In this document: piece after piece, positions 2,446-50,463 of the stretch
Position numbering within the stretch: the first letter of the stretch is position 1
Layout of the letters: each line of letters begins with the position of its first letter
NCBI GenBank assembly: GCA_964349485.1
Contig: CAYGGE010000004.1
Location: 4,628-68,627, forward strand
Direction of reading: 5' to 3'
Length of the DNA: 64,000 nt
Origin: an uncultured Candidatus Saccharibacteria bacterium
Lineage (GTDB): Bacteria; Patescibacteriota; UBA1384; CAYGGE01
Program-made: the position numbers and the translations under genes
The notes under the pieces: generated by a model
Told to the model about the DNA's origin: nothing
The model's input: the letters and a program-made list of their open reading frames with translations, nothing else
Databases searched by the model: none

Positions 2446-2925
2446 ATGATACTCAAGTTTCTCTACACCCTATTTCTTGGGCTGATGGTCGCTCTATTTG
2501 TTGGGTTAGGCGTCGCTGCTTTTTATGAAGCGCCAAAAGAACCAGAATATCCTGAGTTACTAAGCGAACCGATGCTAGTCAAAGAGGGCGTGTCCCAAGA
2601 ATCGGAAGGACAAAAGACGGCTCGCCGGGAATATAACAAAGAACAGAAAGAGTTTCGGAAGTTATCTAGCATCTACAACCGCAACGTCTCAATAGTTGCC
2701 ATGATCGCGGCAGTCATCATCTTAGTCATAAGCCTTAGGCTTGTGACTAAGATATTGCTCATGTCTGATGGTTTACTGCTCGGTGGCGTCCTAACTTTGC
2801 TTTACAGCTTAATCCGCGGCTTTATGGCTGAAGACGCCAAATATCGTTTTGTAGCAGTTACTATTGGTTTATTTATCGCCCTAGTTGTCGGATTTCTTAA
2901 ATTTATCCGTCACGAAGAGAAATAG
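2446..2925 (+). CDS. Hypothetical membrane protein
   Basis: 159 aa with an N-terminal and a C-terminal cluster of predicted TM helices and a charged linker. Confidence 0.5.
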   Translation: MILKFLYTLFLGLMVALFVGLGVAAFYEAPKEPEYPELLSEPMLVKEGVSQESEGQKTARREYNKEQKEFRKLSSIYNRNVSIVAMIAAVIILVISLRLVTKILLMSDGLLLGGVLTLLYSLIRGFMAEDAKYRFVAVTIGLFIALVVGFLKFIRHEEK

Positions 2926-2935
2926 TGGGGTTAAA

Positions 2936-3280
2936 ATGCTATTGTTACGTTGGCTAATTAATGCTCTCACCTTAATAATCGTCGCAAACCTAGTACCAGG
3001 CTTTATGGTCGACTCGCTCTATGCCGCCTTGATCACTGCACTAGTCCTCGGGCTGGTCAATGCGGTGATCCGTCCAGTTCTCTTGCTACTCACCTTACCG
3101 ATCAATTTACTATCGCTCGGTCTATTTACATTTGTGATTAATGCCTTCATGATCCTGCTTGTCTCGACAGTGGTCAAAGGCTTCGAAGTTACAGGCTTTG
3201 GTCCAGCTCTCTGGGCTGCCGTGGTTCTCTGGTTGATTAGCCTGATCACCAATGTTCTCTTCGCTTCGACAAAAGACTGA
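2936..3280 (+). CDS. DUF360 / YvlD-like (phage-holin-4-like) small membrane protein
   Basis: Segment MLLLRWLINALTLIIVANLVPGFMV...VINAFMILL is characteristic of YvlD-family four-TM proteins. The likely start is an internal ATG after the upstream gene's stop. Confidence 0.6.
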   Translation: MLLLRWLINALTLIIVANLVPGFMVDSLYAALITALVLGLVNAVIRPVLLLLTLPINLLSLGLFTFVINAFMILLVSTVVKGFEVTGFGPALWAAVVLWLISLITNVLFASTKD

Positions 3281-5626: not shown

Positions 5627-5989
5627 TTATTTCTTCGTTAAGCCTTTTAGAAAATCAACTAACTTACTCGGTTCAGTTTCGGCCTTGAAGAGGTAGCCTG
5701 CGGCACCTAGTTCCTCACCTTTTTTTGCGCTGACTTCAGGAATATTGGTCAATAAATAGACCGGAATATCCTTGGTCTCATCGCTCGCTTTAAACTGCTT
5801 CAATACATCGAGGCCGTTTAGCTTGGGCATGATGATATCGAGCAAGATAACGTCTGGTTTAGTCGTAATCGCTTTGTCTAAGCCTTCCTCACCATCGACT
5901 GCGGTGACTACCTCGAAACCTTCGGTCTTCATTTTGTCTTGGTACATGGTTAAGAGGGCTTTTTCGTCATCGATTATTAGTACTTTCAT
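5627..5989 (-). CDS. Single-domain response regulator (CheY-like receiver)
   Basis: IIDDE, phospho-acceptor Asp in LLDIIMP, Thr in LLTNIP and Lys in YLFK are all canonical. Its start abuts the stop of the upstream kinase. Confidence 0.85.
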   Translation of the reverse strand: MKVLIIDDEKALLTMYQDKMKTEGFEVVTAVDGEEGLDKAITTKPDVILLDIIMPKLNGLDVLKQFKASDETKDIPVYLLTNIPEVSAKKGEELGAAGYLFKAETEPSKLVDFLKGLTKK

Positions 5990-7366
5990 CTATGAACCTT
6001 TCTTAACTTGTTTGGTGTTAACTAGTGGTAGGCGGATCTTAAAGATCGTACCTTTCCCAACGATCGAAGTAAAGCTAATTGCTCCGCCATGGGTCTCGAT
6101 AATCCGCTTTGCAATGTAGAGGCCTAGGCCAGTTCCTCGAGTGTCTAGATCAAAACTGTTGCTTGCCCGATAGAATCGCTGGAAAATGCGCGACTGTTCT
6201 TCTTCTGGGATGCCAACGCCATTATCTTCGACTGTCACGATGACATCCTTGTCATTTGGATCAACCTTCTGCATCCGGACAATAATCTCCTTAGCATTGT
6301 TATCGGTACCTGAATATTTGATAGCATTATCGATCAAGTTACTAAAGACTTGTTCAAGCTGTATTTTGTTACCTCTAATCTTGTTGACTTTCTGAGTGAG
6401 TTCCATAGATAAGGCGACAGATGAGCTGATAGCCTTCTCTTGAAGAGTTTGGACGCTCTCGCTAATTACTCGGTTTAAGGAGATTGGTTCATAGCGTAAG
6501 GTGACGTCTGTGTTAAGGTGGGTGATGTTGAGAAGATCAGCGATAATATTGCCAAGACGTAAACTGCCGTCGTGAATTTCTTTCATGTATCGTTTCTGCT
6601 TGGCGTTGAGCTTACCGGCATCGCCATCGTAAAGCAGCGAGGCATAGCCCCGGATGATCGAGAGTGGCGAGTTTAATTGATGAGCCGTCATGGAGACGAA
6701 GCCTTCCTCGATCGCTTCGACATCGTTTAATTTCTTATCAACTTCCCGTAGTTTCTCTTCGAAAAAGGTTCTTTCACTTTTTTCATGACGGAGTTGGATG
6801 GCCAAGGCGCGGGCGAAAAAACTGACTAGAATTAGGAATGATATCTGAAAAGTGCCGATGTAAAACGGATCGATTACCGCGAAAAAGCTAGTATTTAAGA
6901 TAAGATTACCGGCGATAAACATGCTGGCAAAAACGGCAATAACCAGTGAATTTAAGATGTTGAGAGCAAATGCCGCCGCCGCGATCGGCAGGATATAGAG
7001 GGTGAAAAAGTAGATATTGTAGTCTTTAGCCAGGGTTGCCAAGATGCCAATGAAGATAACATCGGCAATGTCTTTGATGTAATAGCGTTGCTTATCGTTG
7101 AAATAACGGTAGATCACACTGTAGTAGAGCAGAGCAAACGCGATTACGACTCCAGCAAGCCATAGAGTACTCTCGTCTTGAAAGATATTTGATTTAAAAC
7201 TACGCAAGACAATGATAATTGTCAGGATGATAATCCAAACTGTCGCCTCTGCTAGACGGATGACAGTTTCTTGCCAGTGGTAGTGCAGATGGCTTTTATT
7301 GAGCCCTGGATGCTCATTGTCTGCATGACTTTCGGTGGCGACTGCCGCTCGTTCCATGAGTCCCAT
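5990..7366 (-). CDS. Membrane sensor histidine kinase (HisKA + HATPase_c)
   Basis: H-box HQLNSPLSIIRGYASLL, N-box DNAIKYS, G-boxes EDNGVGIP and GTGLGLYIAKRI, and an N-terminal multi-TM region. The likely start is MGLMERAAV, which has a GGGGA SD; the track start at 7432 lacks one. Confidence 0.85.
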   Translation of the reverse strand: MGLMERAAVATESHADNEHPGLNKSHLHYHWQETVIRLAEATVWIIILTIIIVLRSFKSNIFQDESTLWLAGVVIAFALLYYSVIYRYFNDKQRYYIKDIADVIFIGILATLAKDYNIYFFTLYILPIAAAAFALNILNSLVIAVFASMFIAGNLILNTSFFAVIDPFYIGTFQISFLILVSFFARALAIQLRHEKSERTFFEEKLREVDKKLNDVEAIEEGFVSMTAHQLNSPLSIIRGYASLLYDGDAGKLNAKQKRYMKEIHDGSLRLGNIIADLLNITHLNTDVTLRYEPISLNRVISESVQTLQEKAISSSVALSMELTQKVNKIRGNKIQLEQVFSNLIDNAIKYSGTDNNAKEIIVRMQKVDPNDKDVIVTVEDNGVGIPEEEQSRIFQRFYRASNSFDLDTRGTGLGLYIAKRIIETHGGAISFTSIVGKGTIFKIRLPLVNTKQVKKGS

Positions 7367-7442
7367 GTTCCCCACTTTCTTATCACTACTATAGCAGGGG
7401 GAATGACCTGTCCGCAATGCGTCTAACGACAACTGGTTAGAA

Positions 7443-12314: not shown

Positions 12315-12683
12315 TCAATGCCCCATCGCGCCAGAAATGGCGCGAATGAAGCCTATACCGACTGTGATGAGGGCAGTGACGATGATGCCGACAATCACGG
12401 TGGCAGCGCAGACTACTGCGAACGATTGGAGGCTCTCTTTGGACGCCGTAGTCACTCTGATCTCGACTGCGTAGATTACAGCTGCGACGCCTGCCGTTAT
12501 CCACAATGCTCTTGGTTCTAGATAATCGAGCTGGATACCGATCACGATCAGGGCGAGCAAGAAACTGATCGCGCAGACCAGCCAAACCCGGTAGATGCGT
12601 TCCTTCTCAAGGGGTACAGACTCCGTCTCGTTCCCCGTTTCAACTGTATGCCTACCGAAAATATCTGACTCCCGTCTGTACAT
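12315..12683 (-). CDS. Hypothetical membrane protein
   Basis: 122 aa with three predicted TM helices. Confidence 0.45.
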   Translation of the reverse strand: MYRRESDIFGRHTVETGNETESVPLEKERIYRVWLVCAISFLLALIVIGIQLDYLEPRALWITAGVAAVIYAVEIRVTTASKESLQSFAVVCAATVIVGIIVTALITVGIGFIRAISGAMGH

Positions 12684-23854: not shown

Positions 23855-24373
23855 CTATTTTGCCAGACGGTAGCAGTGTTCGCCCGGCACTATCGGTTGG
23901 CAGCTCACGCGACGGTTAGCGGCTTGGTCGGCCAGCATCTCATCTTCAGTATTGTATGTGCATATAGCGAAGATGATCGGGCAGGTGACTTGGCGATCTA
24001 TCACGTGCCCGGTGATGTCTACGGTCAGTATGACCCGGGCACCCCCCCAGTATTGGCTTCTTTCACTAGTTGTGCAGGTCCAACATACAATTGGACTACA
24101 GGGAGACGCTTCGACGCGCGCCTTCCATACCTCATGAGTATCGAACGTGGTCCTGCATCTATTACAGGTCACTTGCTCGGCAGGGCTGATACGTTCGATT
24201 ACCCCGTTACAGTGTTGACAGTTTACCCGCGCACCCCTGGCATTTGGCGGCGGTGTCGGTTGGGCACATGCCGGACAAGTGATGAGTGCGATACTTGTCA
24301 CCTCATCAATCCACAAACATGACATCGAAGCTACCTGGGCACACCTTGCCCACCTTTCGTCAGTATAGTACAT
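23855..24373 (-). CDS. Cys-rich zinc-ribbon protein (four CxxC pairs), function unknown
   Basis: CPAC...CQHC...CNRC...CWTC. Local GC is about 55-65% against roughly 40-50% in flanking housekeeping genes. The overlapping plus-strand ORF is judged a shadow. Confidence 0.5.
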   Translation of the reverse strand: MYYTDERWARCAQVASMSCLWIDEVTSIALITCPACAQPTPPPNARGARVNCQHCNGVIERISPAEQVTCNRCRTTFDTHEVWKARVEASPCSPIVCWTCTTSERSQYWGGARVILTVDITGHVIDRQVTCPIIFAICTYNTEDEMLADQAANRRVSCQPIVPGEHCYRLAK

Positions 24374-24494
24374 CTGTTACAGCACTTTGTCTAGGTTAGT
24401 AGGCAGTGGTTGCAGTGTGAAGCAACTGCAGTAGGCTTGACGCAGTCGTGGGCGATCCATTTGGACCGCCCACGATTGTAGACAGACTGAGTGC

Positions 24495-24908
24495 TCACCG
24501 TTCGACGATGAAGCAGGTTGCGGGGAAGGGTCTGGTCAGGTCATATTCGACATGAGGCCGATCATCACAATTGGGCTTGACTTGTGAGTATATCCCGATT
24601 TGTCCATCGACAGTGACTCGAAGATATACTCTTGACCTAGTTTGACCCCTGTCCCTTGCGGCCTGCGTACAACCTTCGCACAGGACGTAAGCCCCACTGG
24701 GCTGACGATATGCGTACTGGAACCATTCAGAGTCCAGCACGATTGGTGTTTGGCAGGCTGGGCAGTTACGATCAGATGGTGGGGCGACCCAGCCAATCGA
24801 CATCGCACAGCTCGGACATGCCGCGCTTCCTCCGATTGGAGGTTGGTTCATTCGTTTTTTACACGAGGGACATGCGATATCATTGTCCCTAGGTGCGAAC
24901 TGAGCCAT
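24495..24908 (-). CDS. Cys-rich zinc-ribbon protein, paralog of the previous
   Basis: CPSC...CPSC...CPAC...CEGC plus a shared C-terminal RV.L.V..G.I...QV motif. Start taken at MAQFAP; the track's upstream extension starts at TTG. Confidence 0.5.
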   Translation of the reverse strand: MAQFAPRDNDIACPSCKKRMNQPPIGGSAACPSCAMSIGWVAPPSDRNCPACQTPIVLDSEWFQYAYRQPSGAYVLCEGCTQAARDRGQTRSRVYLRVTVDGQIGIYSQVKPNCDDRPHVEYDLTRPFPATCFIVER

Positions 24909-25028
24909 CTTGCTACCTAGGCACGAGTTGCCTACCTTTCGTAGCCAAAGGATAGAATATATTACTAATTCTGTCCAGTCCTTACCAACCTCCCGATGGG
25001 TGACAGGTGAGATATGGTTTAGTATAGT

Positions 25029-26345
25029 ATGTTTATGATTCAAGCGTTACGACAGTTTTTTTCGATGAAGGCAGTTAGCAAATCACCGTGGTCCTATGTT
25101 GGCCTTGCCGTCATCGGCTTCTTTATATTCCTTCGTTGCTGGCGAATCAACTTACCGGCCGAAACCGTTTTCGATGAAGTTTATTTTCCAAAGATGGCGT
25201 ACCAGTACTTAACCGGCGAGACCTTCTTTGATATTCACCCACCCATAGGGAAACTGATTATTGCACTAGGGGAAATGATCTTTGGTAATACGCAACTTGG
25301 CTGGCGGATTATGCCACTGTTAGCTGGCATTGCCACAATTCCGGTAGCCTTCTGGACGAGCTACCAGGTATTTGCCGATAAGCGGGCGGGCTTTTTAACA
25401 GCTTTTCTTGTCGCCATTGACGGTCTGTTCATCGTTTACTCCCGAACTGGATTGATGGACGGTTTTTTAATCCTTTTCGGGCTGGCAGCCTTCGGCTATG
25501 CTTTTCAGTTCCGCCTACGGCGCCTCAAAGGTCAGTCGGCCTGGGGTCCGTTGCTCCTGACCGGTCTGTTTGCCGGTTTGGCGCTCGCCGTGAAGTGGAT
25601 CGGAGCGGGGTTTCTTCCGGTTGTCGCCTTGATTACGCTATCAACTCTCGTCTTCACCAAAGAGCGCCGGTCTGATGCTAGCGATTATCTCGTCTGGTTT
25701 GGCTCGTTAGTCGTACTACCGATAGTTCTCTACACCGTTCCATTCCTGGCTAACTGGCAGACTGACTTTTGGAATCAATTCATTACCTGGCATAAACAGT
25801 CTTGGCAGTACAATGTGAACCTTGATGCTACCCATCCCTATTCATCCAAGTGGTGGAGTTGGCCATTCTTGGTCCGGCCGATTTGGTTTTACTACAAGAG
25901 TGTGGATGCCCATATCATCGGGGTAGATGCGATCGGTAACCCCTTGGTATGGTGGAGTAGCACTCTCTCGGTCGTATATACCTTGATGGTCTTAGCATAT
26001 ACCGCGTTGATTCATAACCGAACCGAAGCGCCACTTGTTGAGAAGAAATACATTTACTCACTCCTAGCAGTCACTAGTGGTTGGGCAGCCTTCTATCTCC
26101 CATGGTCAGTAGTTGGCCGGGTTCTCTTTCTCTATCATTATTTTGCCAGCTATCTCTTCGCCTTATTATTGACAGGCTTCTGGCTTGGTCAAGTCTATAG
26201 CGTCAGTCGCCCGTTGCGTTACTTGGTTATCGCGCTTCTAGCTGCGTTTGTCACTTCTGGACTGTTCTTCGCCCCAATCTGGATCGCCCACCCCATCTCT
26301 CAGAGCTGGTTTGATCGCTTAATGTGGTTTAGGTCGTGGATCTAG
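25029..26345 (+). CDS. GT39/PMT-family (dolichyl-phosphate-mannose protein mannosyltransferase-like) membrane glycosyltransferase
   Basis: DEVYF acidic motif in the first loop, about 11 TM helices, and the conserved PMT region HPPIGKLIIALG. Confidence 0.7.
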   Translation: MFMIQALRQFFSMKAVSKSPWSYVGLAVIGFFIFLRCWRINLPAETVFDEVYFPKMAYQYLTGETFFDIHPPIGKLIIALGEMIFGNTQLGWRIMPLLAGIATIPVAFWTSYQVFADKRAGFLTAFLVAIDGLFIVYSRTGLMDGFLILFGLAAFGYAFQFRLRRLKGQSAWGPLLLTGLFAGLALAVKWIGAGFLPVVALITLSTLVFTKERRSDASDYLVWFGSLVVLPIVLYTVPFLANWQTDFWNQFITWHKQSWQYNVNLDATHPYSSKWWSWPFLVRPIWFYYKSVDAHIIGVDAIGNPLVWWSSTLSVVYTLMVLAYTALIHNRTEAPLVEKKYIYSLLAVTSGWAAFYLPWSVVGRVLFLYHYFASYLFALLLTGFWLGQVYSVSRPLRYLVIALLAAFVTSGLFFAPIWIAHPISQSWFDRLMWFRSWI

Positions 26346-28625: not shown

Positions 28626-29519
28626 ATGTACGACCAAATCACGTCCAACAAAAATAAAACCTATATCCTCTTCTTCTGCTTCTTTGTCTTTATGATTGGC
28701 ATAGCTTGGCTGATTAGCTACGCCTACGACCTGTCCTGGCTACTACCCGTTGCCGTTATTGTGACTGTTGTCCAAGCACTCACCAGTTATTATTACTCAG
28801 ACCAAATTGCTTTAGCGGTATCTGGTGCTAAGCTGATTAAGAAAGCGGAAATCCCTGAACTGTACCGCATGGTAGAGAACCTATCGATTACGGCTGGTTT
28901 ATCCATGCCTCGAGTTTATTTGATTCCTGATACGGCGATCAATGCTTTTGCGACCGGTCGCGATCCGAAGCATGCAGCGATTGCGGTCACTAAGGGGGCG
29001 CTCGAGCAGCTGGAAAATGAGGAACTTGAAGGGGTGTTAGCCCATGAACTATCCCATATTGGTAACTATGACATCCGGGTCTCGACCATCGCGGTTGTTC
29101 TCGTAGGAGTCATCGCCCTCGTCTCTGACCTCTTCCTGCGTCATGTCTTCTGGTTTGGCAGTGGGCGAGAACGGGAGAATAATAGCAGTAGTGGTCAGCT
29201 TCAGACTTTTTTGATGATTGTTGCGCTGGTTCTGGCAATCCTGGCTCCACTTATTGCCCAACTCATTCAACTTGCTGTTTCACGAAAGCGAGAGTACTTG
29301 GCCGATGCCTCAGGTGTTTTATTGACGCGCTACCCCGAGGGTTTAGCTAAGGCGCTTGAAAAGATCGGCGCCGATCACGAACCACTCGAAGTCGCCAACA
29401 AAGCGACAGCTCACCTCTACATTGCCAATCCCTTAAAGGACCATAAAGGTAAAATCAACTCCCTGTTCTCAACCCATCCACCACTCGAAGATCGGATCCG
29501 AATCTTAAGGGAAATGTAA
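28626..29519 (+). CDS. htpX: Zinc metalloprotease HtpX-like (M48)
   Basis: HELSHIGNYD (HExxH) and a TM topology typical of HtpX. Confidence 0.85.
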   Translation: MYDQITSNKNKTYILFFCFFVFMIGIAWLISYAYDLSWLLPVAVIVTVVQALTSYYYSDQIALAVSGAKLIKKAEIPELYRMVENLSITAGLSMPRVYLIPDTAINAFATGRDPKHAAIAVTKGALEQLENEELEGVLAHELSHIGNYDIRVSTIAVVLVGVIALVSDLFLRHVFWFGSGRERENNSSSGQLQTFLMIVALVLAILAPLIAQLIQLAVSRKREYLADASGVLLTRYPEGLAKALEKIGADHEPLEVANKATAHLYIANPLKDHKGKINSLFSTHPPLEDRIRILREM

Positions 29520-29555
29520 ACGGTACGAAACATCCCCATTTCATTTCTTATATAG

Positions 29556-29587
29556 AAACGCCCGGCCGGAAACCCGGCTGGGCGTTT
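29556..29587. terminator. GC-rich hairpin, probable terminator, at the boundary of GC-rich islet 2
   Basis: AAACGCCCGGCCGG-aaac-CCGGCTGGGCGTTT, a 14-bp stem with one mismatch. Confidence 0.5.
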
Positions 29588-29619
29588 CGTGCGTTCTGTA
29601 TTGCCAGGGTTTCACCTGA

Positions 29620-29868
29620 CTAATCGGCACCGCATGGGCCAACGTACTGCGAGTAGTCGATGCCGAGATTGTATTCTGGATCGACCTGGGTCTGGCCGGG
29701 CATACATCGCTCATCGAGTGGAGCGGAAGTCTGGACGATGACAGCATCCAGTGGCAATCCAATCCCTTTCAGACACTCGGGGTCAATGCAGCGCTGCCCA
29801 TTACCAAGAGGCTTACCGCATTCGGTGCAAATCCTACCCTGTGTTGGCAGGAGGATTGTGGCGGACAT
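29620..29868 (-). CDS. Small zinc-ribbon protein, 82 aa
   Basis: CTEC...CIDPEC, with a GGAG SD on the minus strand. It shares the G.GLPLD......APL.E motif with the next gene. Confidence 0.5.
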   Translation of the reverse strand: MSATILLPTQGRICTECGKPLGNGQRCIDPECLKGIGLPLDAVIVQTSAPLDERCMPGQTQVDPEYNLGIDYSQYVGPCGAD

Positions 29869-30015
29869 CGATGTCTCCAGTTCCCTAAAGAGAGTAGGAA
29901 CTTTTCTGCCGATAGTTTAGCACCAATTATTCAAAAATACCAGTACTTCATGACTGGAATGCAAAGACCGGCGCGCTGACTGCGGCACCGGTCTTACTGA
30001 CTTCCCTGATGAGAA

Positions 30016-30282
30016 TTATCGTTTCTGAGCGGCTCGCCGTTTCAGTCGGCTGCCCAGACTGTTAATTTCTGACAACATCTCCCTTAGGCTCAGGCCAGTG
30101 AACCTGTAACGTTGCGTCTTCGGATTGAATTCAATCAGAGGGGCTGCCTGCAGCCGGAGATCGAGTGGAATTGCCAGGTAACCGACGTCCTGGACTAGGC
30201 GACAGCGAGTGCATCGGTGCTGTTCTGCCATCTCGGTATAGACAAGGATGCCATCGCACGAAGGATCTGGACAGGGTTCCAT
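30016..30282 (-). CDS. Small zinc-ribbon protein, 88 aa, paralog of the previous
   Basis: CPDPSC...CTRC, with an AAAGGAA SD. Motif LAIPLDLRLQAAPLIEF and a basic C-terminal tail. Confidence 0.5.
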   Translation of the reverse strand: MEPCPDPSCDGILVYTEMAEQHRCTRCRLVQDVGYLAIPLDLRLQAAPLIEFNPKTQRYRFTGLSLREMLSEINSLGSRLKRRAAQKR

Positions 30283-30424
30283 GCTCGTTCCTTTCTAGGC
30301 GCAAGTATTATTACCTTAGCATCGTATATTCTTTCGGTAAAGAGAAACCGGGCTCGTCACAGCGGACGCGCCCGGTTTCAAGGACTCCTCGATTTGCGGA
30401 CCTCGCGGGGTCCGCTGCTCGTCA

Positions 30425-30955
30425 CTACGCAGGGCACGGCACCCCCATAGCCCTGAAGAGGTCCTGAGGTGTGGACGCCACTGCCAGTGTGCCCACATAC
30501 TCTTCAAACGTGGCAACCAGGTCATCGACGTGGCCTATGTCGCAGAGTAGGCCGATCTTCCTACTTGTTCTTCGGGCCTCCCTGATTAGCTCACCCAGGA
30601 ACATGACGGTGTCAAATTCCAGCACTGTAGTCTCCACAATGTCCAGGACGACTATCGTGGCCTTGGGCCTTTCCTCGTCCACTAGCGCCAGAGACACGTT
30701 CATGCTGCGCTCGACAGCCTGGCTGATTCTCTCGCCGTCACCGTGCATGAGGATCAGTGCGAATAGGGGGAAGTATACTACCCCGAAGCGACATTCATTG
30801 CCGCCATCTAGGCTAGCCTTTTCCTCCCTATTTGGGAGGCTCAGCCAGTATGCATCAAAGCTCCCAGCTCCTTGTGCATACGGTTCGTAGATCACCTTTT
30901 GCCTGCTCTGAAGAGCATGCTTCACATGATCCCTAGGTGCGATGGCTGTTGACAC
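30425..30955 (-). CDS. Hypothetical protein with a STAS-like (anti-sigma-antagonist-like) C-terminal region
   Basis: Strong SD AAGGAGAAAA. ATIVVLDIVETTVLEFDTVMFLGELIREARRTSRKIGLLCDIGHVDDLVATFEEYVG resembles the STAS beta-alpha pattern; this is a weak call. Confidence 0.4.
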   Translation of the reverse strand: MSTAIAPRDHVKHALQSRQKVIYEPYAQGAGSFDAYWLSLPNREEKASLDGGNECRFGVVYFPLFALILMHGDGERISQAVERSMNVSLALVDEERPKATIVVLDIVETTVLEFDTVMFLGELIREARRTSRKIGLLCDIGHVDDLVATFEEYVGTLAVASTPQDLFRAMGVPCPA

Positions 30956-31098
30956 GTTTGTTTTCTCCTTTCGTGCGAAGCCAGTTGGCCCGAACTATAC
31001 ACTAAAATCTGTTTTAAGTCAAGTCGTGAAGTAGGATTCGTCGTGCAAATATGGATAATAACTGGTATTATTTTGACAAACAACAATATATGGAGTAG

Positions 31099-33204
<2,106 letters not shown>

Positions 33205-33299: not shown

Positions 33300-34511
33300 A
33301 TGTCGGTTCAAGGGGGAATATGTGCTGTTTTGTCGAGCGCTGGTGATGCGGCCAGGCTAACGGCAGCATCACTGTTCACTTTGCAGTACCGAGGGACGCA
33401 ATGTGCCGGCTTGACCGCCTTTGACAGTCATCGGCAGAGCGATCTGCATGGCGTCGGTTTAGTGAGAGATGTAATCAGGCTAAATGAGGATTACTACACT
33501 TCTGCGCTCGGTGCTGTCTTTCGTAAGGTCACTATCCAGCCGATCAAAATCGCGCAGGGAGTGGTGTTGGCGGTCTGTGGGAGACTAACTGACTCTAGCA
33601 GATTAGTCCACGATGAACTTGTTAGTCGACTCCAACTGGAAAGGGGTGGTACTCTATCTTGTCGACTAATTAGCGCCTTAAGTGGGCTGAACGGGGTATT
33701 CGTTGGTGTTATGGCGACACCGAGCGAGTTACTGGCTTTCTGTGACTCTTCCGGACTGCAAACTCTGGTCATCGGTCAGTTGGCTACTGGCTGGTGTGTC
33801 GCCACCGAGAGTTGTGGATTCGGCTTGGTCCAGGCAAGCTATATGCGTAAAGTTGGACCTGGCCAGCTGGTCAGATTGACGAGTGATGACTTGGTGATGA
33901 CACAGTTCGCGCCTAGTCAGCCTCGCCAATGCTCCATGCAATTGGTCTCATTGATGCGGCCAGACAGTTGCTATGGTGGGGGTGAGGTTCACTCGGTGCG
34001 TGTGCGGTCTGGCGCAGTGCTGGCCCGAGAGGCGCCAGCCACTGGCGATGTGGTTGTGGCGGTACCGGATGCCGCCATGGGGGCGGCCGTCGGTTACGCG
34101 ACTGAAGCGGGTATACGATTTGACCAGGCGATTTTCCGTAATCGCTATCCGGGCGCGACCGAATTGTGCCAGCAGTTTAACATCTTGCCGGAGACGGTGA
34201 ATGGTAAGCGAGTGGTTATCGTGGAAAACGCTGTCCACACCGGTCGAACTTTGACCTATGTGGTAAAGTCAATCCGCGAGGCAGGAGCAGGTGAGGTCCA
34301 TGTCCGGGTCGCTTCGCCACCGATCCGCTCTGTCTGTCTTTACGCCAATGGGGTTGAGCAGGCTGGACGACTGATTGCCGGACGTTCTTCGGTGGAAGAG
34401 ATTCGGCAGTTTCTCGACGTAGAGACGCTGGCCTTCTTAAGCGAAGCAGGCCTGCAGGAAGCAATTAAGTTGACTGCCGAACAGACCTGTCGGCAATGTA
34501 TGGCCGGCTAA
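33300..34511 (+). CDS. purF: Amidophosphoribosyltransferase-like protein (N-terminal-nucleophile class-II glutamine amidotransferase + PRTase)
   Basis: Short propeptide MSVQGGI before Cys8, and the PRTase PRPP loop VVIVENAVHTGRTLTYVVKSIREAGAGEVHVRVASPPI. Strong SD GGAGG. GC content is higher than in neighbouring genes. Confidence 0.7.
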   Translation: MSVQGGICAVLSSAGDAARLTAASLFTLQYRGTQCAGLTAFDSHRQSDLHGVGLVRDVIRLNEDYYTSALGAVFRKVTIQPIKIAQGVVLAVCGRLTDSSRLVHDELVSRLQLERGGTLSCRLISALSGLNGVFVGVMATPSELLAFCDSSGLQTLVIGQLATGWCVATESCGFGLVQASYMRKVGPGQLVRLTSDDLVMTQFAPSQPRQCSMQLVSLMRPDSCYGGGEVHSVRVRSGAVLAREAPATGDVVVAVPDAAMGAAVGYATEAGIRFDQAIFRNRYPGATELCQQFNILPETVNGKRVVIVENAVHTGRTLTYVVKSIREAGAGEVHVRVASPPIRSVCLYANGVEQAGRLIAGRSSVEEIRQFLDVETLAFLSEAGLQEAIKLTAEQTCRQCMAG

Positions 34512-41413: not shown

Positions 41414-41827
41414 CTACTTATTGATCTGATCGAATACGCGCGTAACATATTGGATCAGTTCGATCTGGTTGAACGGTTTCTTTAGGAAGCAATCAACCCC
41501 GCTCTGCCATGCCCTGAACACGTCGGCGTCCGTCGCTTTCTCGGACAACACGAAGAACGGGATATCAGCCGTATTTGGATCTTGCTTGAGTTCACGCAAC
41601 AGCGCGTACCCATCCATGTACGGCAAGGTGATTTCAGTCACCACCATGTCTGGGGTTTCGCTACGCACTTTCTCGAGTGCTTCACGGCCGTCGTAAGCGA
41701 CTATCACGTCATAGCCGGCACGCATCAATGCATGTTCCACTAACCTGGTGATATTATGCTCTTTGTCCACCACCAGGATCTTCCTGGGCATGCTGTTCTC
41801 CTTTCCTGTCACAGCCCGTTGTGGCAA
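41414..41827 (-). CDS. Atypical single-domain receiver protein (phospho-acceptor Asp replaced by Glu)
   Basis: Aligns to CheY with VVDKE instead of DD, VVTEITLPYMDG (E at the D57 position), a Ser at the T87 position and a conserved Lys (LKKPF). Confidence 0.65.
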   Translation of the reverse strand: MPQRAVTGKENSMPRKILVVDKEHNITRLVEHALMRAGYDVIVAYDGREALEKVRSETPDMVVTEITLPYMDGYALLRELKQDPNTADIPFFVLSEKATDADVFRAWQSGVDCFLKKPFNQIELIQYVTRVFDQINK

Positions 41828-41858
41828 AGTCTACCTGAAACATGCCTAACTCGCAACC

Positions 41859-42272
41859 TTACCAGCGGTGGGCTGTTCCCGGGTAGAGGATCCTTTGGAT
41901 GAAGACATCCAACATTCTCAGGTCTAGAGGCAAGTCTAGAACACAATCTGCACCCGCAGCCCAGGCTCTATGAGCCTGATCGTCACTGCTTAGCATAATC
42001 ACCGGCATGTCACGAGTTACTGGATCTGCCTTGATTGTCCTTAGGATCTGCCAGCCATCACGATCGGCAGGTCCATCGGCATATGTGACTACTAGCGAAA
42101 TATTCACGTTGGATCTGACCCACTCGAGTCCTTGGCTGGCGAGATCGGTAGCCAAGGTCTTGTAAGCTCGTCTCTCTAAACACCTGACGATTTGTGCACT
42201 AAAGCACTCTTCGGCGATCACTAAGATCGTACGCGTTCCATCCATCCTTTTTCTCCATTTTCTCCATCGCAA
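41859..42272 (-). CDS. Degenerate receiver-like domain protein (pseudo-receiver)
   Basis: IAEE instead of DD, LVVTYADGPADRDG with no clear phospho-acceptor Asp, and no Lys at the K109 position (CVLDLPLD). Confidence 0.5.
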   Translation of the reverse strand: MRWRKWRKRMDGTRTILVIAEECFSAQIVRCLERRAYKTLATDLASQGLEWVRSNVNISLVVTYADGPADRDGWQILRTIKADPVTRDMPVIMLSSDDQAHRAWAAGADCVLDLPLDLRMLDVFIQRILYPGTAHRW

Positions 42273-48231: not shown

Positions 48232-48268
48232 AAAGGGCCGGCACCTACTGGTGCCGGCCCTTTGTTTA
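48232..48268. terminator. Bidirectional intrinsic terminator
   Basis: AAAGGGCCGGCACC-tact-GGTGCCGGCCCTTT followed by GTTTAGTG. Confidence 0.6.
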
Positions 48269-49246
48269 GTGCCTGACTTTAGGCCACCTGACGTTGCCGT
48301 CCGGTGCTAGTCTGACCAGCCGGTCATCCCACCACTCGATTTCTGACCAAACGGCCGTGTCGTGGGTGGTGGTCATGAACCGGCCGGGCTTGTTGGTGTC
48401 GATCTCAGTGACTGACAAGCAATCGCTAGTCAGGATCGCCACTCGGTAGATGCTTGCTTTATAGCTGGGATCAAACCTCACATCTCTCACGGCACTCGCC
48501 TTGTTAGGTGTCGTGTAGATAGCAGGCAAGGTCACTGGCAGGCTGGACTCGATGTCCCAGAGGACGGCGAGCTCACCCCCAGCGACGGCCAGATATCTGT
48601 CGTCTGGCGAGAATTCCATGGTGACGACTGGCGAGCATTCGCTCTCGTCTTTTAGGCTAGTTTTTTGTCTCCCGCCGTACATGATCGACACAACGGTTAT
48701 TGTCCCGTCAACCTCAGCCCAAGCGATCCGGTGACCGCTTGGGGAGATCGCAAGAGCAGTGATCATTTGATCACCTTGTCCTAGGAGATCCAATCCTCTG
48801 GCGGATTGCAAGACCACTCGATAGTAGTCATCATTTCGAGTGACCATACATAACTCGCCGCCTCGACTGACCGCGATCTGACGGACCATATCAGGTAATC
48901 CTTCGATCCAGCATGCCTGCTGGTTAAGGCAGTGGACCTGACCATGCGCATCAAGGGTGTACACCTTTGTGGCACTTTCTGAGAGGCCGATCTGGGTCAC
49001 TGGTGCCGTTCTGCCTCTTGCCTGTCTTTTGGTCTTAGCGGTGCTTAAGGTATCGACAATCTTGACGGTACCGTCAGTCATGCCGAAGACCAGAGTGTTC
49101 CCTGTGGCCGCCATGCTGGTGACCGTCGCTTCACGTCTGCATAAGGCGAACGGAATAGCAAGGACAGCTAGAATGATGCCTACACTCCAACACACTGCCG
49201 TATCTGTTCGAGACATGTTTTCCCTCTCCCCGACAAGGACCGGCAA
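48266..49246 (-). CDS. Membrane-anchored WD40-like beta-propeller protein
   Basis: N-terminal TM helix, then repeated ...DGTVKIVD..., SPSGHRIAWAEVDGTITVV and SPDDRYLAVAGGELAVLWD blades. GC-rich. Confidence 0.55.
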   Translation of the reverse strand: MPVLVGERENMSRTDTAVCWSVGIILAVLAIPFALCRREATVTSMAATGNTLVFGMTDGTVKIVDTLSTAKTKRQARGRTAPVTQIGLSESATKVYTLDAHGQVHCLNQQACWIEGLPDMVRQIAVSRGGELCMVTRNDDYYRVVLQSARGLDLLGQGDQMITALAISPSGHRIAWAEVDGTITVVSIMYGGRQKTSLKDESECSPVVTMEFSPDDRYLAVAGGELAVLWDIESSLPVTLPAIYTTPNKASAVRDVRFDPSYKASIYRVAILTSDCLSVTEIDTNKPGRFMTTTHDTAVWSEIEWWDDRLVRLAPDGNVRWPKVRH

Positions 49247-49394
49247 TCCGGTCAGTTGATTCTGATTAGAAATTATTCAGGTTCAGAACCGGTGATTATA
49301 GCAGATTATCAGCTTGAGGTCAAGGGCATTGGTAATTGACGCATAAATTGCAAACTGATGATCAACATTAGAAGTTCTTTCTCAAATACGAACA

Positions 49395-49421
49395 GCGACC
49401 GGTCCTGCTTGGACCGGTCGC
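49395..49421 (-). terminator. Hairpin terminator between the two WD40 paralogs
   Basis: GCGACCGGTCC-tgctt-GGACCGGTCGC, an 11-bp stem. Confidence 0.5.
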
Positions 49422-49440
49422 GTGTGTTCACCCCCAGATC

Positions 49441-50463
49441 TTAGATTGAATTGACCTTCTGGATAGGTCGGACTCTCTTGATTGTCCAGCTCTGACCGCT
49501 ATTGCCGACGGCGATGATCTTGTCCATGCACCAGACGATCTGGTGCCAATCGCCGGCATCAGAGACTTTAAAGTTGTAGCGCTCCGGATTACTCCGGTCC
49601 AGCTCAATGAGCGCTAAGCCATCACTGGTCAGCGTAGCCAGATGGTACCGGGTCGAGCTCACTTCTAACGGTGCAAAGACCAGTGACCTAACCTCCCTTG
49701 GTCGCTGACTTGATCTCGCGTAGACTGCCGGCAGCTCAAGTGGCAGTGCTAGTGCGTTAATGTCCCAGAGGACTATCGAATGGCTACCTACAGCAAGGTA
49801 TTGACCATCCGGTGTGAACTGGAGTGCAGTGATCGGGCTTCGATCCTGCGCATTGGATAGTTTAGAGTGCATCTGCGCATCACGCACCCTATAGATTGTC
49901 GCCGTGCCATTCGCTTGTCCGAAAACGACGCGATGACCGTCTGGCGAGAAACCGAGTGCGGTGATCGGCTCTTGGACCGTTTCGAGCGCCCGTTCTACGC
50001 CACTGGCAGTACGTAGGATGACATGGAAGCCCTTTGTATCGCGGGCCACCAAGCCAAGGGTGCCTTGAGAGCTGACCGCGAGCTGAACAACTTGGTAGGC
50101 CAATTGTTCCCGCGTCCAACGCTTGTGAGTTAGATCACAGCTCCGCATCACACCTGTCTGGTCTAGGGTGTAGACTCGCGATCCTTTGCTCGAGAAGGCA
50201 ACTTGGACGATACTTGGAGTTCTGCCCTTCGGTCGCAGTGGTGTTTGACCGAGTTGCGTCTCACTGTCAACCAGTTGTATCGATCCATCTGCGCAACCGA
50301 TAACAATGGTCTGGCCGACGGCCGTGATGGCCGTTTTGGCTGAGGAAGTCTCCTTATATCCCATCCACATAGCAACACATAACATGGACAAGAGGACCAC
50401 CACACTGCCGACGAGCAGGCCCCAATTGCGGCTCTCCTCATGATCTTCTGTCACGCAACACAT
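49441..50463 (-). CDS. Membrane-anchored WD40-like beta-propeller protein, tandem paralog
   Basis: Same architecture as 48266..49246 (ADGSIQLVD, SPDGHRVVFGQANGTATIY, TPDGQYLAVGSHSIVLWD). Confidence 0.55.
   Translation of the reverse strand: MCCVTEDHEESRNWGLLVGSVVVLLSMLCVAMWMGYKETSSAKTAITAVGQTIVIGCADGSIQLVDSETQLGQTPLRPKGRTPSIVQVAFSSKGSRVYTLDQTGVMRSCDLTHKRWTREQLAYQVVQLAVSSQGTLGLVARDTKGFHVILRTASGVERALETVQEPITALGFSPDGHRVVFGQANGTATIYRVRDAQMHSKLSNAQDRSPITALQFTPDGQYLAVGSHSIVLWDINALALPLELPAVYARSSQRPREVRSLVFAPLEVSSTRYHLATLTSDGLALIELDRSNPERYNFKVSDAGDWHQIVWCMDKIIAVGNSGQSWTIKRVRPIQKVNSI

Follow-up and report, generated by a model that had tools for sequence, protein, structure and literature searches.

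A lineage-specific islet at the htpX-ligA junction of a Saccharibacteria-like genome appears to encode a divergent STAS-fold protein and two tiny zinc-ribbon proteins

Introduction

Proteins consisting of a STAS domain only, among them the anti-sigma-factor antagonists SpoIIAA, RsbV and RsbS and the non-canonical SypA, BtrV and SiaC, act as general protein-binding switches, whose partners beyond the kinase/anti-sigma paradigm are, to our knowledge, mostly unknown. Small stand-alone zinc ribbons or fingers are represented by the N-terminal ribbon of TFIIB, by ZifS of Thermus and by the C4 ribbons of ribosomal proteins and RNA polymerase subunits. Here we describe an islet situated between htpX and ligA in the genome of a Saccharibacteria-like member of the ultra-small and poorly understood Patescibacteria. 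It lies in a 64-kb stretch of DNA, which was analysed as a whole and is called the window in the following, and it seems to consist of three lineage-specific genes for a divergent STAS-fold protein (p176) and two tiny zinc-ribbon proteins (zr88 and zr82).

Like the STAS-domain-only proteins, p176 is small and acidic (pI 5.0), contains little beyond its predicted STAS-fold domain and carries an Asp and next to it a hydroxyl residue at the putative start of helix alpha-2. Unlike them, it is matched neither by PF01740 nor by PF13466, bears an N-terminal extension of ~43 residues, has zinc-ribbon genes instead of a kinase or phosphatase gene as neighbours and belongs to a family found in two genomes only. 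zr88 and zr82 share with stand-alone zinc ribbons the N-terminal Cys knuckles, spaced 9–14 residues apart, and for zr88, more tentatively, also a three-stranded single-sequence model and the best Foldseek matches (E 0.4 or higher), whereas Pfam scores below threshold, unique C-terminal halves and an organization in arrays of divergent copies set them apart. The islet as a whole resembles phage ‘morons’ and small genomic islets at integration hotspots in its short genes, which differ in composition from the flanks, bear a terminator-like hairpin each and lie between conserved genes, and in the varying content of the same junction among relatives. Unlike those, it is chromosomal, lacks a prophage, integrase, tRNA or att repeats and is vertically inherited in at least two genomes.

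Results

The genes of the islet and of its borders are as follows.
28626–29519, plus strand: htpX (Peptidase_M48 according to Pfam), left edge of the variable junction
29620–29868, minus strand: zr82, ORF of 82 aa with ATG start, acidic (pI 4.3)
30016–30282, minus strand: zr88, ORF of 88 aa with ATG start, basic (pI 9.1)
30425–30955, minus strand: p176, STAS-fold gene, ORF of 176 aa with GTG start
30965–30970, minus strand: Shine-Dalgarno sequence AAGGAG of p176, read from the sequence
31102–33204, plus strand: ligA (NAD-dependent DNA ligase), right edge of the variable junction

The conserved genes htpX and ligA have the same orientation, p176 is divergent from ligA and zr82 is convergent with htpX. 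An earlier note on this DNA had described three minus-strand genes, each with a good Shine-Dalgarno sequence and separated by long spacers of ~140 bp, and all of this was recovered. The three ORFs are present and do not overlap, AAGGAG precedes the GTG of p176 by 9 nt, and AAGGA and GGAG stand 6 nt upstream of the ATG of zr88 and zr82, respectively. The two spacers measure 142 and 147 bp; same-strand spacers in the window have a median of 34 bp and reach 140 bp or more in six of 49 cases. The GC distribution over the codon positions is coding-like for p176, zr88 and zr82 (0.61/0.47/0.59 for the latter) and flat for the antisense ORF. Together with the protein-level homologue of p176 described below, this argues for coding sequence rather than non-coding RNA, and we take the islet to contain three genuine protein genes. 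A structured RNA in their place was rejected, as Rfam gave no matches at gathering thresholds and the matches with weak E-values were terminator hairpins. Four other contigs carrying this locus were 100% identical to the window and consequently provide no population signal for polymorphism or selection.

For p176 one structural model of moderate confidence was obtained from a two-sequence alignment of p176 and its homologue P0007. It predicts a STAS/SpoIIAA alpha/beta fold for residues ~44–172, comprising a central beta-sheet and four helices, and its nearest structural neighbours are SpoIIAA and RsbV/RsbS-type antagonists; confidence is low for residues 1–31 (pLDDT <50 for 1–21 and 26–31). 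According to this model, p176 is predicted to be a very divergent single-domain STAS/SpoIIAA-fold protein. STAS homology on the sequence level was tried and rejected: neither p176 nor P0007 matched any Pfam or NCBIfam family at E <= 1, including PF01740 and PF13466, the best match of a profile search among PDB sequences had an E-value of 0.43 and was not a STAS protein, and hhalign against SpoIIAA and RsbV gave a probability of 0.2%.

P0007 was the only homologue of p176 in about 15 billion proteins (27% identity; E 1e-7 in a full HMMER scan of 1.84 billion representatives). Three further matches of the same scan, P0006, P0008 and P0009, were discarded as artefactual matches to highly repetitive proteins. 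Word-indexed searches of 5.8 billion proteins returned the query alone for the single p176 sequence, and the query and P0007 alone for the profile of both; no relatives of p176 were found in JGI metagenomes or IMG/VR. The N-terminal extension contains a GAGxxDxxW motif, which is conserved between p176 and P0007. In SpoIIAA the phosphorylated serine is S58, which is located in the conserved loop at the N-terminus of helix alpha-2 (PMC8256260). In p176 D115-T116 stands at the start of the predicted helix 114–129, and P0007 has D-G-T there, so that the candidate phospho-acceptor T116 is not strictly conserved: P0007 has G at the acceptor position and Thr one residue later.

The Cys knuckles previously noticed in the small proteins were confirmed as C4-x4-C9...C24-x2-C27 in zr88 and C14-x2-C17...C27-x4-C32 in zr82, i.e. 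both contain the two knuckles (CxxC/Cx4C) that, separated by a short beta-hairpin, are characteristic of zinc ribbons. Such a double knuckle occurs in only seven of 197 six-frame window ORFs of at least 60 aa, five of them within the two GC-rich islets of the window, including an antisense one. In zr88 the putative N-terminal zinc ribbon is followed by a low-confidence linker with IPLD...APLIE and a C-terminal basic helix; zr82 combines the N-terminal CxxC...Cx4C knuckle pair with the motif LPLD...APLDE. A single-sequence AF2 model of zr88 (overall pTM 0.30) places strands at 12–16, 21–24 and 30–32 within residues 1–32 (pLDDT ~75), and its best Foldseek matches are zinc ribbons such as TFIIB-N and eS27/eS31, with E-values of 0.4 or higher. 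The Cys pattern thus backs the assignment as zinc ribbons, and this model does so weakly; all Pfam ribbon families scored below threshold for both proteins. zr88 is an orphan among 5.8 billion proteins, and zr82 gave no matches in phage tblastn or among PDB sequences.

The claim that zr88 and zr82 are paralogous held up weakly. Their Smith-Waterman score is 38, compared with 25 +/- 4.8 for shuffled sequences (p ~0.02), and it was unchanged with fixed Cys positions; BLASTP yields E-values of 0.04–0.16. Both are related to proteins from the other GC-rich islet of the window:
23855–25043, minus strand: islet 1, two paralogous orphan multi-CxxC proteins of 172 and 182 aa
The relationship is weaker for zr82 than for zr88, for which the comparison with the 172-aa protein gives z 5.4 with fixed Cys positions. 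zr88 and zr82 are best explained as members of a genome-specific, fast-diversifying Cys-knuckle family with more copies in islet 1.

The closest relative is L085, with 79% identity in the N-terminus of LigA. There, P0007 is encoded at the same ligA/htpX junction, and the htpX C-terminus is found at the opposite contig end. Five small ORFs with Cys knuckles come after P0007, as compared with two small ORFs in the islet described here. The STAS proteins of both loci are 25–29% identical, in contrast to the 79% for LigA, and the small proteins of the window have no detectable similarity to those of L085. The order of a STAS gene and subsequent same-strand Cys-knuckle ORFs recurs at both known loci, i.e. 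STAS and zinc-ribbon genes have been seen together in n = 2 cases only. The best explanation is that the islet was already present in the common ancestor of the window genome and L085 and has since then diverged much more rapidly than the genes around it.

The gap between htpX and ligA was furthermore compared in ten other relatives carrying both genes. In this synteny comparison, which the earlier note had suggested, both genes are adjacent in half of them, with a gap of 0–250 bp (L005, L093, L097, L100 and L103). The other five (L087, L088, L090, L091 and L101) contain unrelated inserts of 1–5.7 kb at the junction, with genes for a membrane protein, a WD40-like protein, a 1371-aa protein and GIY-YIG proteins as well as GC-rich patches. 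This marks the junction as a hotspot for insertions and the block as accessory. The islet is missing at the same site in all ten genomes, as is expected of an acquired islet.

The base composition likewise differs from that of the host genome, both in total GC and in the GC3 of p176. The sharp GC rise reported earlier is real, since 29541–30960 belongs to the top 0.16% of all 1420-bp windows, but it was overstated, with 54.4% compared to 48.1% for the whole window. Of the 60-mers, for which 57–65% had been stated, 28% reach 57% and the mean is only 54.6%; the flanking genes htpX and ligA are at 48–49%, and the stated 40–50% did not hold for them. GC3 is 0.64 for p176 against 0.50 +/- 0.05 for the other window genes (z 2.7), and z is merely 1.2–1.8 for zr88 and zr82. 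The L085 islet exhibits the same GC offset, with GC3 raised to 0.71 vs 0.58.

The following elements were assigned in the spacers.
29555–29588, no strand given: hairpin between the convergent zr82 and htpX, 15-nt arms, z -5.0
29964–29995 and 29940–29957, minus strand: two tandem hairpins 3' of zr88, then UAUUUUU, terminator-like, z -4.4
30344–30379, minus strand: hairpin 2, arms of 15 nt and then UUUCUCUUU, terminator-like, position kept in L085
30396–30415, minus strand: hairpin 1, 7-bp stem and hexaloop CCGCGA, starting 10 nt past the p176 stop
30994–31022, minus strand: sigma-70-type promoter-like site TTGACT-17-TATAGT for p176, 10 of 12 matches

The promoter-like site is located in the AT-rich divergent spacer shared by p176 and ligA (146 bp, 37.7% GC), and in the alignment the L085 locus keeps a -35 element TTGACTT and a -10 element TAnAnT. 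No convincing promoters were found for zr88 and zr82. A strong GC hairpin is indeed present in each spacer, with arms of 10–15 nt; 23 comparable GC hairpins occur across the window, many of them intergenic at gene ends, and such hairpins are therefore not specific to the islet. The hairpin between zr82 and htpX is likely a bidirectional terminator. The 90-nt 3' region of p176 folds with -43.3 kcal/mol (z -3.35). Hairpin 1 has a counterpart in L085 (1284–1303) with an identical loop, and the stems differ by two compensatory pairs (A-U to G-C and C-G to U-A) and one wobble change. Hairpins with a CCGCGA loop and a stem of at least 5 bp are rare, with only 16 in 2.06 Mb on both strands. A covariance model of the conserved 3' element retrieved the two founding loci only; one IMG/VR pattern match in GC-rich sequence (9.7 bits, E 0.69) was dismissed, as it looks like chance.

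Discussion

The earlier description of the islet as horizontally acquired is borne out as far as an accessory block at a hotspot is concerned. The orthologous islet of L085, whose promoter and 3' hairpin match those found here, indicates inheritance within a small clade and not a recent acquisition, and neither a donor nor a mobility gene nor a flanking repeat was found. In particular, no integrase, transposase or tRNA was detected near the islet and no prophage; flanking direct or inverted repeats did not exceed chance (the longest, 9 nt, corresponds to the 95th percentile by chance), and protein, metagenome, phage and plasmid searches gave no islet homologues outside the two loci that could point to a donor. 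An origin from a phage, plasmid or defence system was rejected, with PADLOC, PHROGs and tblastn against phages and plasmids all negative.

We consider the chances about even that the islet is a lineage-specific accessory unit at the variable htpX-ligA site, in which a STAS anchor may act on the zinc-ribbon proteins as a kinase-less binding switch. In such a unit p176 would be the anchor gene with its own conserved sigma-70-type promoter, closed by the conserved double hairpin, and zr88 and zr82 would each end in their own terminator-like hairpin, with the hairpins possibly setting the expression level per gene. p176 might work as a protein-binding switch independent of a linked kinase or phosphatase, which would either keep the small zinc-ribbon proteins encoded next to it sequestered by binding or set them free; these proteins in turn could be small regulators with nucleic acid or RNA polymerase as their targets. 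The connection that this assumes between the STAS and the zinc-ribbon proteins, whether physical or functional, is inferred. If true, this would reveal from Patescibacteria a STAS family that is invisible to sequence models, with small zinc-ribbon proteins as candidate partners and a conserved RNA hairpin. The htpX-ligA junction is furthermore a chromosomal hotspot where reduced episymbiont genomes gather GC-richer, fast-evolving orphan genes, which bears on innovation in streamlined genomes. The islet itself is an observation from two genomes.

Less probable, yet to be taken seriously, is that a permissive insertion or recombination hotspot simply gathered independent, self-contained cassettes similar to phage ‘morons’, in which case STAS and zinc-ribbon genes would be functionally unconnected. 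Per-gene terminator-like hairpins fit such unrelated cassettes as well as an operon. The entirely different inserts at the same junction in five other relatives, the islet GC unlike that of the flanks, the absence of detectable homology between the small proteins of both loci and the zinc-ribbon orphans of islet 1, which has no STAS gene, all point in this direction. On the other hand, the STAS anchor is accompanied by same-strand Cys-knuckle ORFs at both known loci, its promoter and 3' hairpin are conserved, and the lack of any prophage, integrase, transposase, tRNA or flanking repeat and of PHROG, PADLOC, phage or plasmid matches likewise speaks against it.

A more far-reaching version of the switch reading, which we regard as unlikely, is a hitherto unrecognized, kinase-independent STAS module of Patescibacteria, in which a sequence-orphan STAS hub would bind an expandable, fast-diversifying array of zinc-ribbon proteins and the conserved CCGCGA 3' hairpin would couple their expression. 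If true, it would represent a new partner-switching architecture, possibly for symbiont-host or phage conflict, and the CCGCGA hairpin would be a cis-regulatory or protein-binding element.

Canonical partner switching by phosphorylation, with p176 as anti-sigma-factor antagonist, a kinase (anti-sigma factor) and a PP2C phosphatase encoded elsewhere and the zinc-ribbon genes as bystanders, is slightly less probable still. It draws on the SpoIIAA- and RsbV/RsbS-type structural neighbours of p176 and on T116, which follows an invariant Asp at the predicted N-terminus of helix alpha-2 and would thereby take the position of the SpoIIAA phospho-Ser (PMC8256260). The displaced Thr of P0007 and the failure of the STAS Pfam models to match do not agree with it, and in Pfam scans neither a HATPase_c anti-sigma Ser kinase nor a PP2C phosphatase was found within +/-10 kb or among 30 further ORFs of the window. 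The sole HATPase_c domain among the scanned window genes belongs to a classical HisKA histidine kinase (5990–7432).

Least probable, and in our opinion improbable, is a conflict or host-interaction cassette, in which an arms race of STAS and fast-evolving zinc-ribbon proteins (anti-phage, anti-defence or for manipulation of the episymbiont's host) would account for the extreme divergence. In its favour are the 27% identity of the STAS proteins next to 79% for the neighbouring LigA, the varying number of small ORFs (two vs five), the position at a variable hotspot and the persistently atypical GC3. Against it, no PADLOC or PHROG family matched, neither an enzymatic effector domain nor a signal for secretion or a signal peptide was recognized, and weakly constrained orphans are also expected to diverge fast.

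Composition of the htpX-ligA block

The junction between htpX and ligA holds three open reading frames (ORFs), all on the minus strand and without mutual overlap, which very probably are real genes:

28626-29519, plus strand: htpX, left flank of the block
29620-29868, minus strand: zr82, 82-aa zinc-ribbon-type protein; SD GGAG at 6 nt
30016-30282, minus strand: zr88, 88-aa zinc-ribbon-type protein; SD AAGGA at 6 nt
30425-30955, minus strand: p176, 176-aa predicted STAS-fold protein; GTG start, SD AAGGAG at 9 nt
31102-33204, plus strand: ligA, right flank of the block

The GC content per codon position was coding-like for p176 (0.62/0.41/0.64), zr88 (0.62/0.45/0.56) and zr82 (0.61/0.47/0.59); in an antisense ORF of 100 aa (30165-30467) it was flat (0.57/0.56/0.55). 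The sharp GC rise described in the earlier note is real, with 54.4% for the block vs 48.1% for the window (top 0.16% of 1420-bp windows), but smaller than claimed, as 60-mers in the block averaged 54.6% and htpX and ligA have 48-49%. The GC3 of p176 (0.64) lies 2.7 sd above that of the other window genes (0.50 ± 0.05), and those of zr88 and zr82 merely 1.2-1.8 sd. The spacers between the three genes measure 142 and 147 bp; for same-strand gene pairs in the window the median is 34 bp, and 6 of 49 reach at least 140 bp. A promoter-like TTGACT-17-TATAGT precedes p176, and the promoter scan unveiled no comparable site for zr88 or zr82.

Predicted fold of p176

No match to p176 was obtained in Pfam, NCBIfam, PADLOC or PHROGs, nor in a profile search of PDB sequences; it fails the sequence models for STAS membership, and hhalign against SpoIIAA/RsbV (reference sequences entered by hand) found nothing. 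The AlphaFold2 model, built from a two-sequence alignment (pLDDT 71.5, pTM 0.72), has the order b-b-b-a-b-a-b-a-b-a over residues 44-170.

Table. Structural neighbours of the p176 model, with comparison score
SpoIIAA (1tid_B): 11.1
4qtp: 10.5
RsbS: 9.7
SLC26 STAS domains: 7.5-9.1
SiaC: 8.0

Foldseek concurred (probability 1.0, E about 4e-3). As both comparisons agree, the earlier designation "STAS-like" holds at the fold level, and p176 is predicted, from a single moderate model, to have a STAS fold. In SpoIIAA, D57-S58 lies at the N-terminus of helix alpha-2 and S58 is phosphorylated (PMC8256260). D115-T116 of p176 occupies this position in the model; its sole homologue has D-G-T there, so that a phospho-switch at T116 is only possible.

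Homologues and the islet of the closest relative

The source genome is metagenome-assembled (Patescibacteria); the best LigA and HtpX matches among GTDB species representatives, in a Saccharibacteria MAG, were 56-57% identical. Four other contigs carry the locus, each 100% identical to the window. In an index of 5.8 billion proteins p176 and zr88 were both orphans; HMMER, run in full over 1.84 billion representatives, gave one real p176 homologue, P0007 (187 aa, 25-29% identity, E 1e-7). P0006, P0008 and P0009, all highly repetitive, were rejected as artefacts and not p176 homologues; their E values, down to 5e-17, arise from scores summed over 5-11 tandem repeats, and such matches could mislead automated annotation.

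P0007 is encoded on L085, a 3950-bp contig of the closest relative. The LigA N-terminus encoded at one contig end shares 79% identity with that of the window, and the opposite end encodes an HtpX C-terminus, LEDRIRRLREMA*; this islet (3.4 kb, GC 57-61%) is therefore complete and orthologously placed. Downstream of its STAS gene, and co-oriented with it, come five small Cys-knuckle ORFs and a Cys-free one, with hairpins 3' of most of them. Both known loci thus have the STAS anchor first and, behind it, small Cys-knuckle genes that vary in number. Judged from the sequences, the islet proteins diverge far faster than their neighbours (STAS protein 27% identity vs 79% for LigA), and the coding sequences are too diverged for DNA alignment. 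In both islets GC3 lies about 0.1 above the flanks.

Kept between the two loci are the promoter, TTGACTT...TAnAnT, and a stretch of some 80 nt immediately 3' of the STAS stop (mean column identity 78%, gaps not counted). The latter contains a 7-bp hairpin whose hexaloop CCGCGA is identical in both and whose stem differs by two compensatory changes and one wobble change; a terminator hairpin comes next. CCGCGA-loop hairpins with stems of at least 5 bp occur just 16 times in 2.06 Mb, both strands counted, and a covariance model of the element detected no further copies in the sequence set scanned.

In the public gene call for L085, a 196-aa minus-strand ORF (2398-2988) overlies the plus-strand Cys-knuckle ORFs o92 (2236-2514) and o113 (2674-3015; TTG start, beginning RCHACR...CSVC). 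The two plus-strand ORFs suit the array better, and the public call is therefore likely to be an error. Between a TTGACA/TATACT promoter-like stretch and the first zinc-ribbon ORF, o125 (start 1697), lie about 270 nt; this region (1393-1696), a long GC-rich leader or unannotated element, has no counterpart in the window.

The Cys-knuckle proteins

Two Cys knuckles open both zr88 (Cx4C...CxxC) and zr82 (CxxC...Cx4C). The single-sequence model of zr88 comprises a three-stranded N-terminus (moderate confidence, pLDDT about 75), a low-confidence linker with the motif IPLD...APL.E and a basic C-terminal helix; its best Foldseek neighbours were zinc ribbons (TFIIB-N, eS27/eS31, ZifS) with E of at least 0.4. 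Both proteins are putative zinc ribbons of a generic kind, without family assignment. The motif, already noticed in the first reading, is indeed common to both; the paralogy proposed there is weak (BLASTP E 0.04-0.16, shuffle tests p about 0.02).

A double knuckle occurs in 7 of the 197 six-frame window ORFs of at least 60 aa, namely LigA, zr88, zr82, one other and three in a further locus, islet 1 (its two proteins and one antisense ORF):

23855-25043, minus strand: islet 1, GC-rich; multi-CxxC orphans of 172 aa (23855-24373) and 182 aa

When Cys positions were kept fixed, zr88 was more clearly similar to the 172-aa protein (z 5.4, through C.G[IV]...AEQ..C.RCR) than to zr82. The 172-aa and 182-aa proteins are paralogous (z 5.7, Cys positions fixed), the resemblance of zr82 to the latter is weak (z 3.2), and Pfam returned no family above threshold for either islet-1 protein. 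From these similarities zr88 and zr82 are members of a diversifying Cys-knuckle family specific to this genome.

The junction as an insertion site

Ten more distant relatives with htpX and ligA on one contig were compared. The genes are adjacent (gap 0-250 bp) in five (L005, L093, L097, L100, L103), and the other five (L087, L088, L090, L091, L101) carry unrelated inserts of 1-5.7 kb, including a membrane protein, a WD40-like protein, a 1371-aa protein, GIY-YIG genes and GC-rich patches; none of the five encodes relatives of p176 or the zinc ribbons. The prospect that all relatives share these genes was thus not borne out, the orthologous islet being that of L085. No integrase, tRNA or flanking repeats were found at the islet, and no donor, phage or plasmid match. 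It follows that the block is accessory and that its site is prone to insertions. Within a small clade it has passed down by inheritance, and it is not a recent acquisition. The horizontal acquisition proposed in the earlier note is thus supported in part, through the accessory character of the block.

GC-rich patches in relatives (57-68% GC vs 40-46% for the genomes):
L087, 3150-4180: holds a 161-aa TM-like ORF, minus strand
L088, 466-740: adjoins a GIY-YIG gene
L101, 5034-5367: adjoins a GIY-YIG gene homologous to that of L088

They matched no Rfam, tRNA or tmRNA model; candidates are orphan genes, gene remnants or unknown RNAs.

Hairpins

Strong, GC-rich hairpins of the block:
30396-30415 and 30344-30379: pair 3' of p176
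29964-29995 and 29940-29957: pair 3' of zr88
29555-29588: between convergent zr82 and htpX

Across the 64-kb window 23 strong GC hairpins (stems 8-12 bp) were counted, many intergenic at gene ends; they are a usual intergenic feature of this genome, not peculiar to the block, and most likely act as terminators. Several of the 23 have no clear T-tract, judged from printed flanks, which suggests a terminator style largely missed by the consensus scan (2 sites in the 29300-31300 covered).

Possible function

STAS-only proteins are protein-binding switches, canonical and non-canonical (PMC8256260), and the block was likened most to these, although it fails the STAS sequence models. In the most economical model, p176 would bind the adjacent zinc-ribbon proteins, zr88 (basic, with its C-terminal helix) and zr82 would be small regulators, and the hairpins would set relative expression. 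We hold the structural and evolutionary description with considerable confidence; the specific mechanism is tentative and rather doubtful, and for the whole statement an even balance is our compromise.

The strongest competitor, a gathering of unrelated moron-like cassettes at a hotspot, is on the unlikely side; the arrangement is like that of phage morons and small islets, but the block bears no mobility signature. A canonical antagonist with kinase and phosphatase elsewhere in the genome is improbable: unlike STAS partner-switching systems, the block is without these defining neighbours, and none linked to p176 was found among the window genes scanned. A conflict or host-interaction cassette is more improbable still. 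As an observation the block is well supported, with the zinc-ribbon proteins as testable candidate partners of p176; its function is inferred and its distribution very narrow. It joins a sequence-orphan STAS family to an unusual gene neighbourhood and a conserved RNA hairpin, a combination known from two genomes only.

Other genes in the window

5627-7432, minus strand: classical two-component pair, HisKA+HATPase_c kinase and receiver protein
12315-12683, 41414-42272 and 48266-50463, minus strand: GC-rich genes (GC 51-55%, GC3 0.52-0.65)
33300-34511, plus strand: 403-aa gene adjoining ligA, GC 55.4%

A HATPase regex scan missed the kinase of the pair, so it was considered unreliable and unused as evidence. 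The three GC-rich sites encode a small membrane protein, two receiver-domain proteins and two WD40 proteins; they are accessory, amid plus-strand housekeeping genes, and strong hairpins flank several of them. In this genome an elevated GC content seems to be a general mark of accessory genes. The sole domain match of the 33300-34511 product is Pribosyltran (residues 244-335), with no Pfam family in its N-terminal 240 residues; a degenerate PurF-like protein is one possibility.
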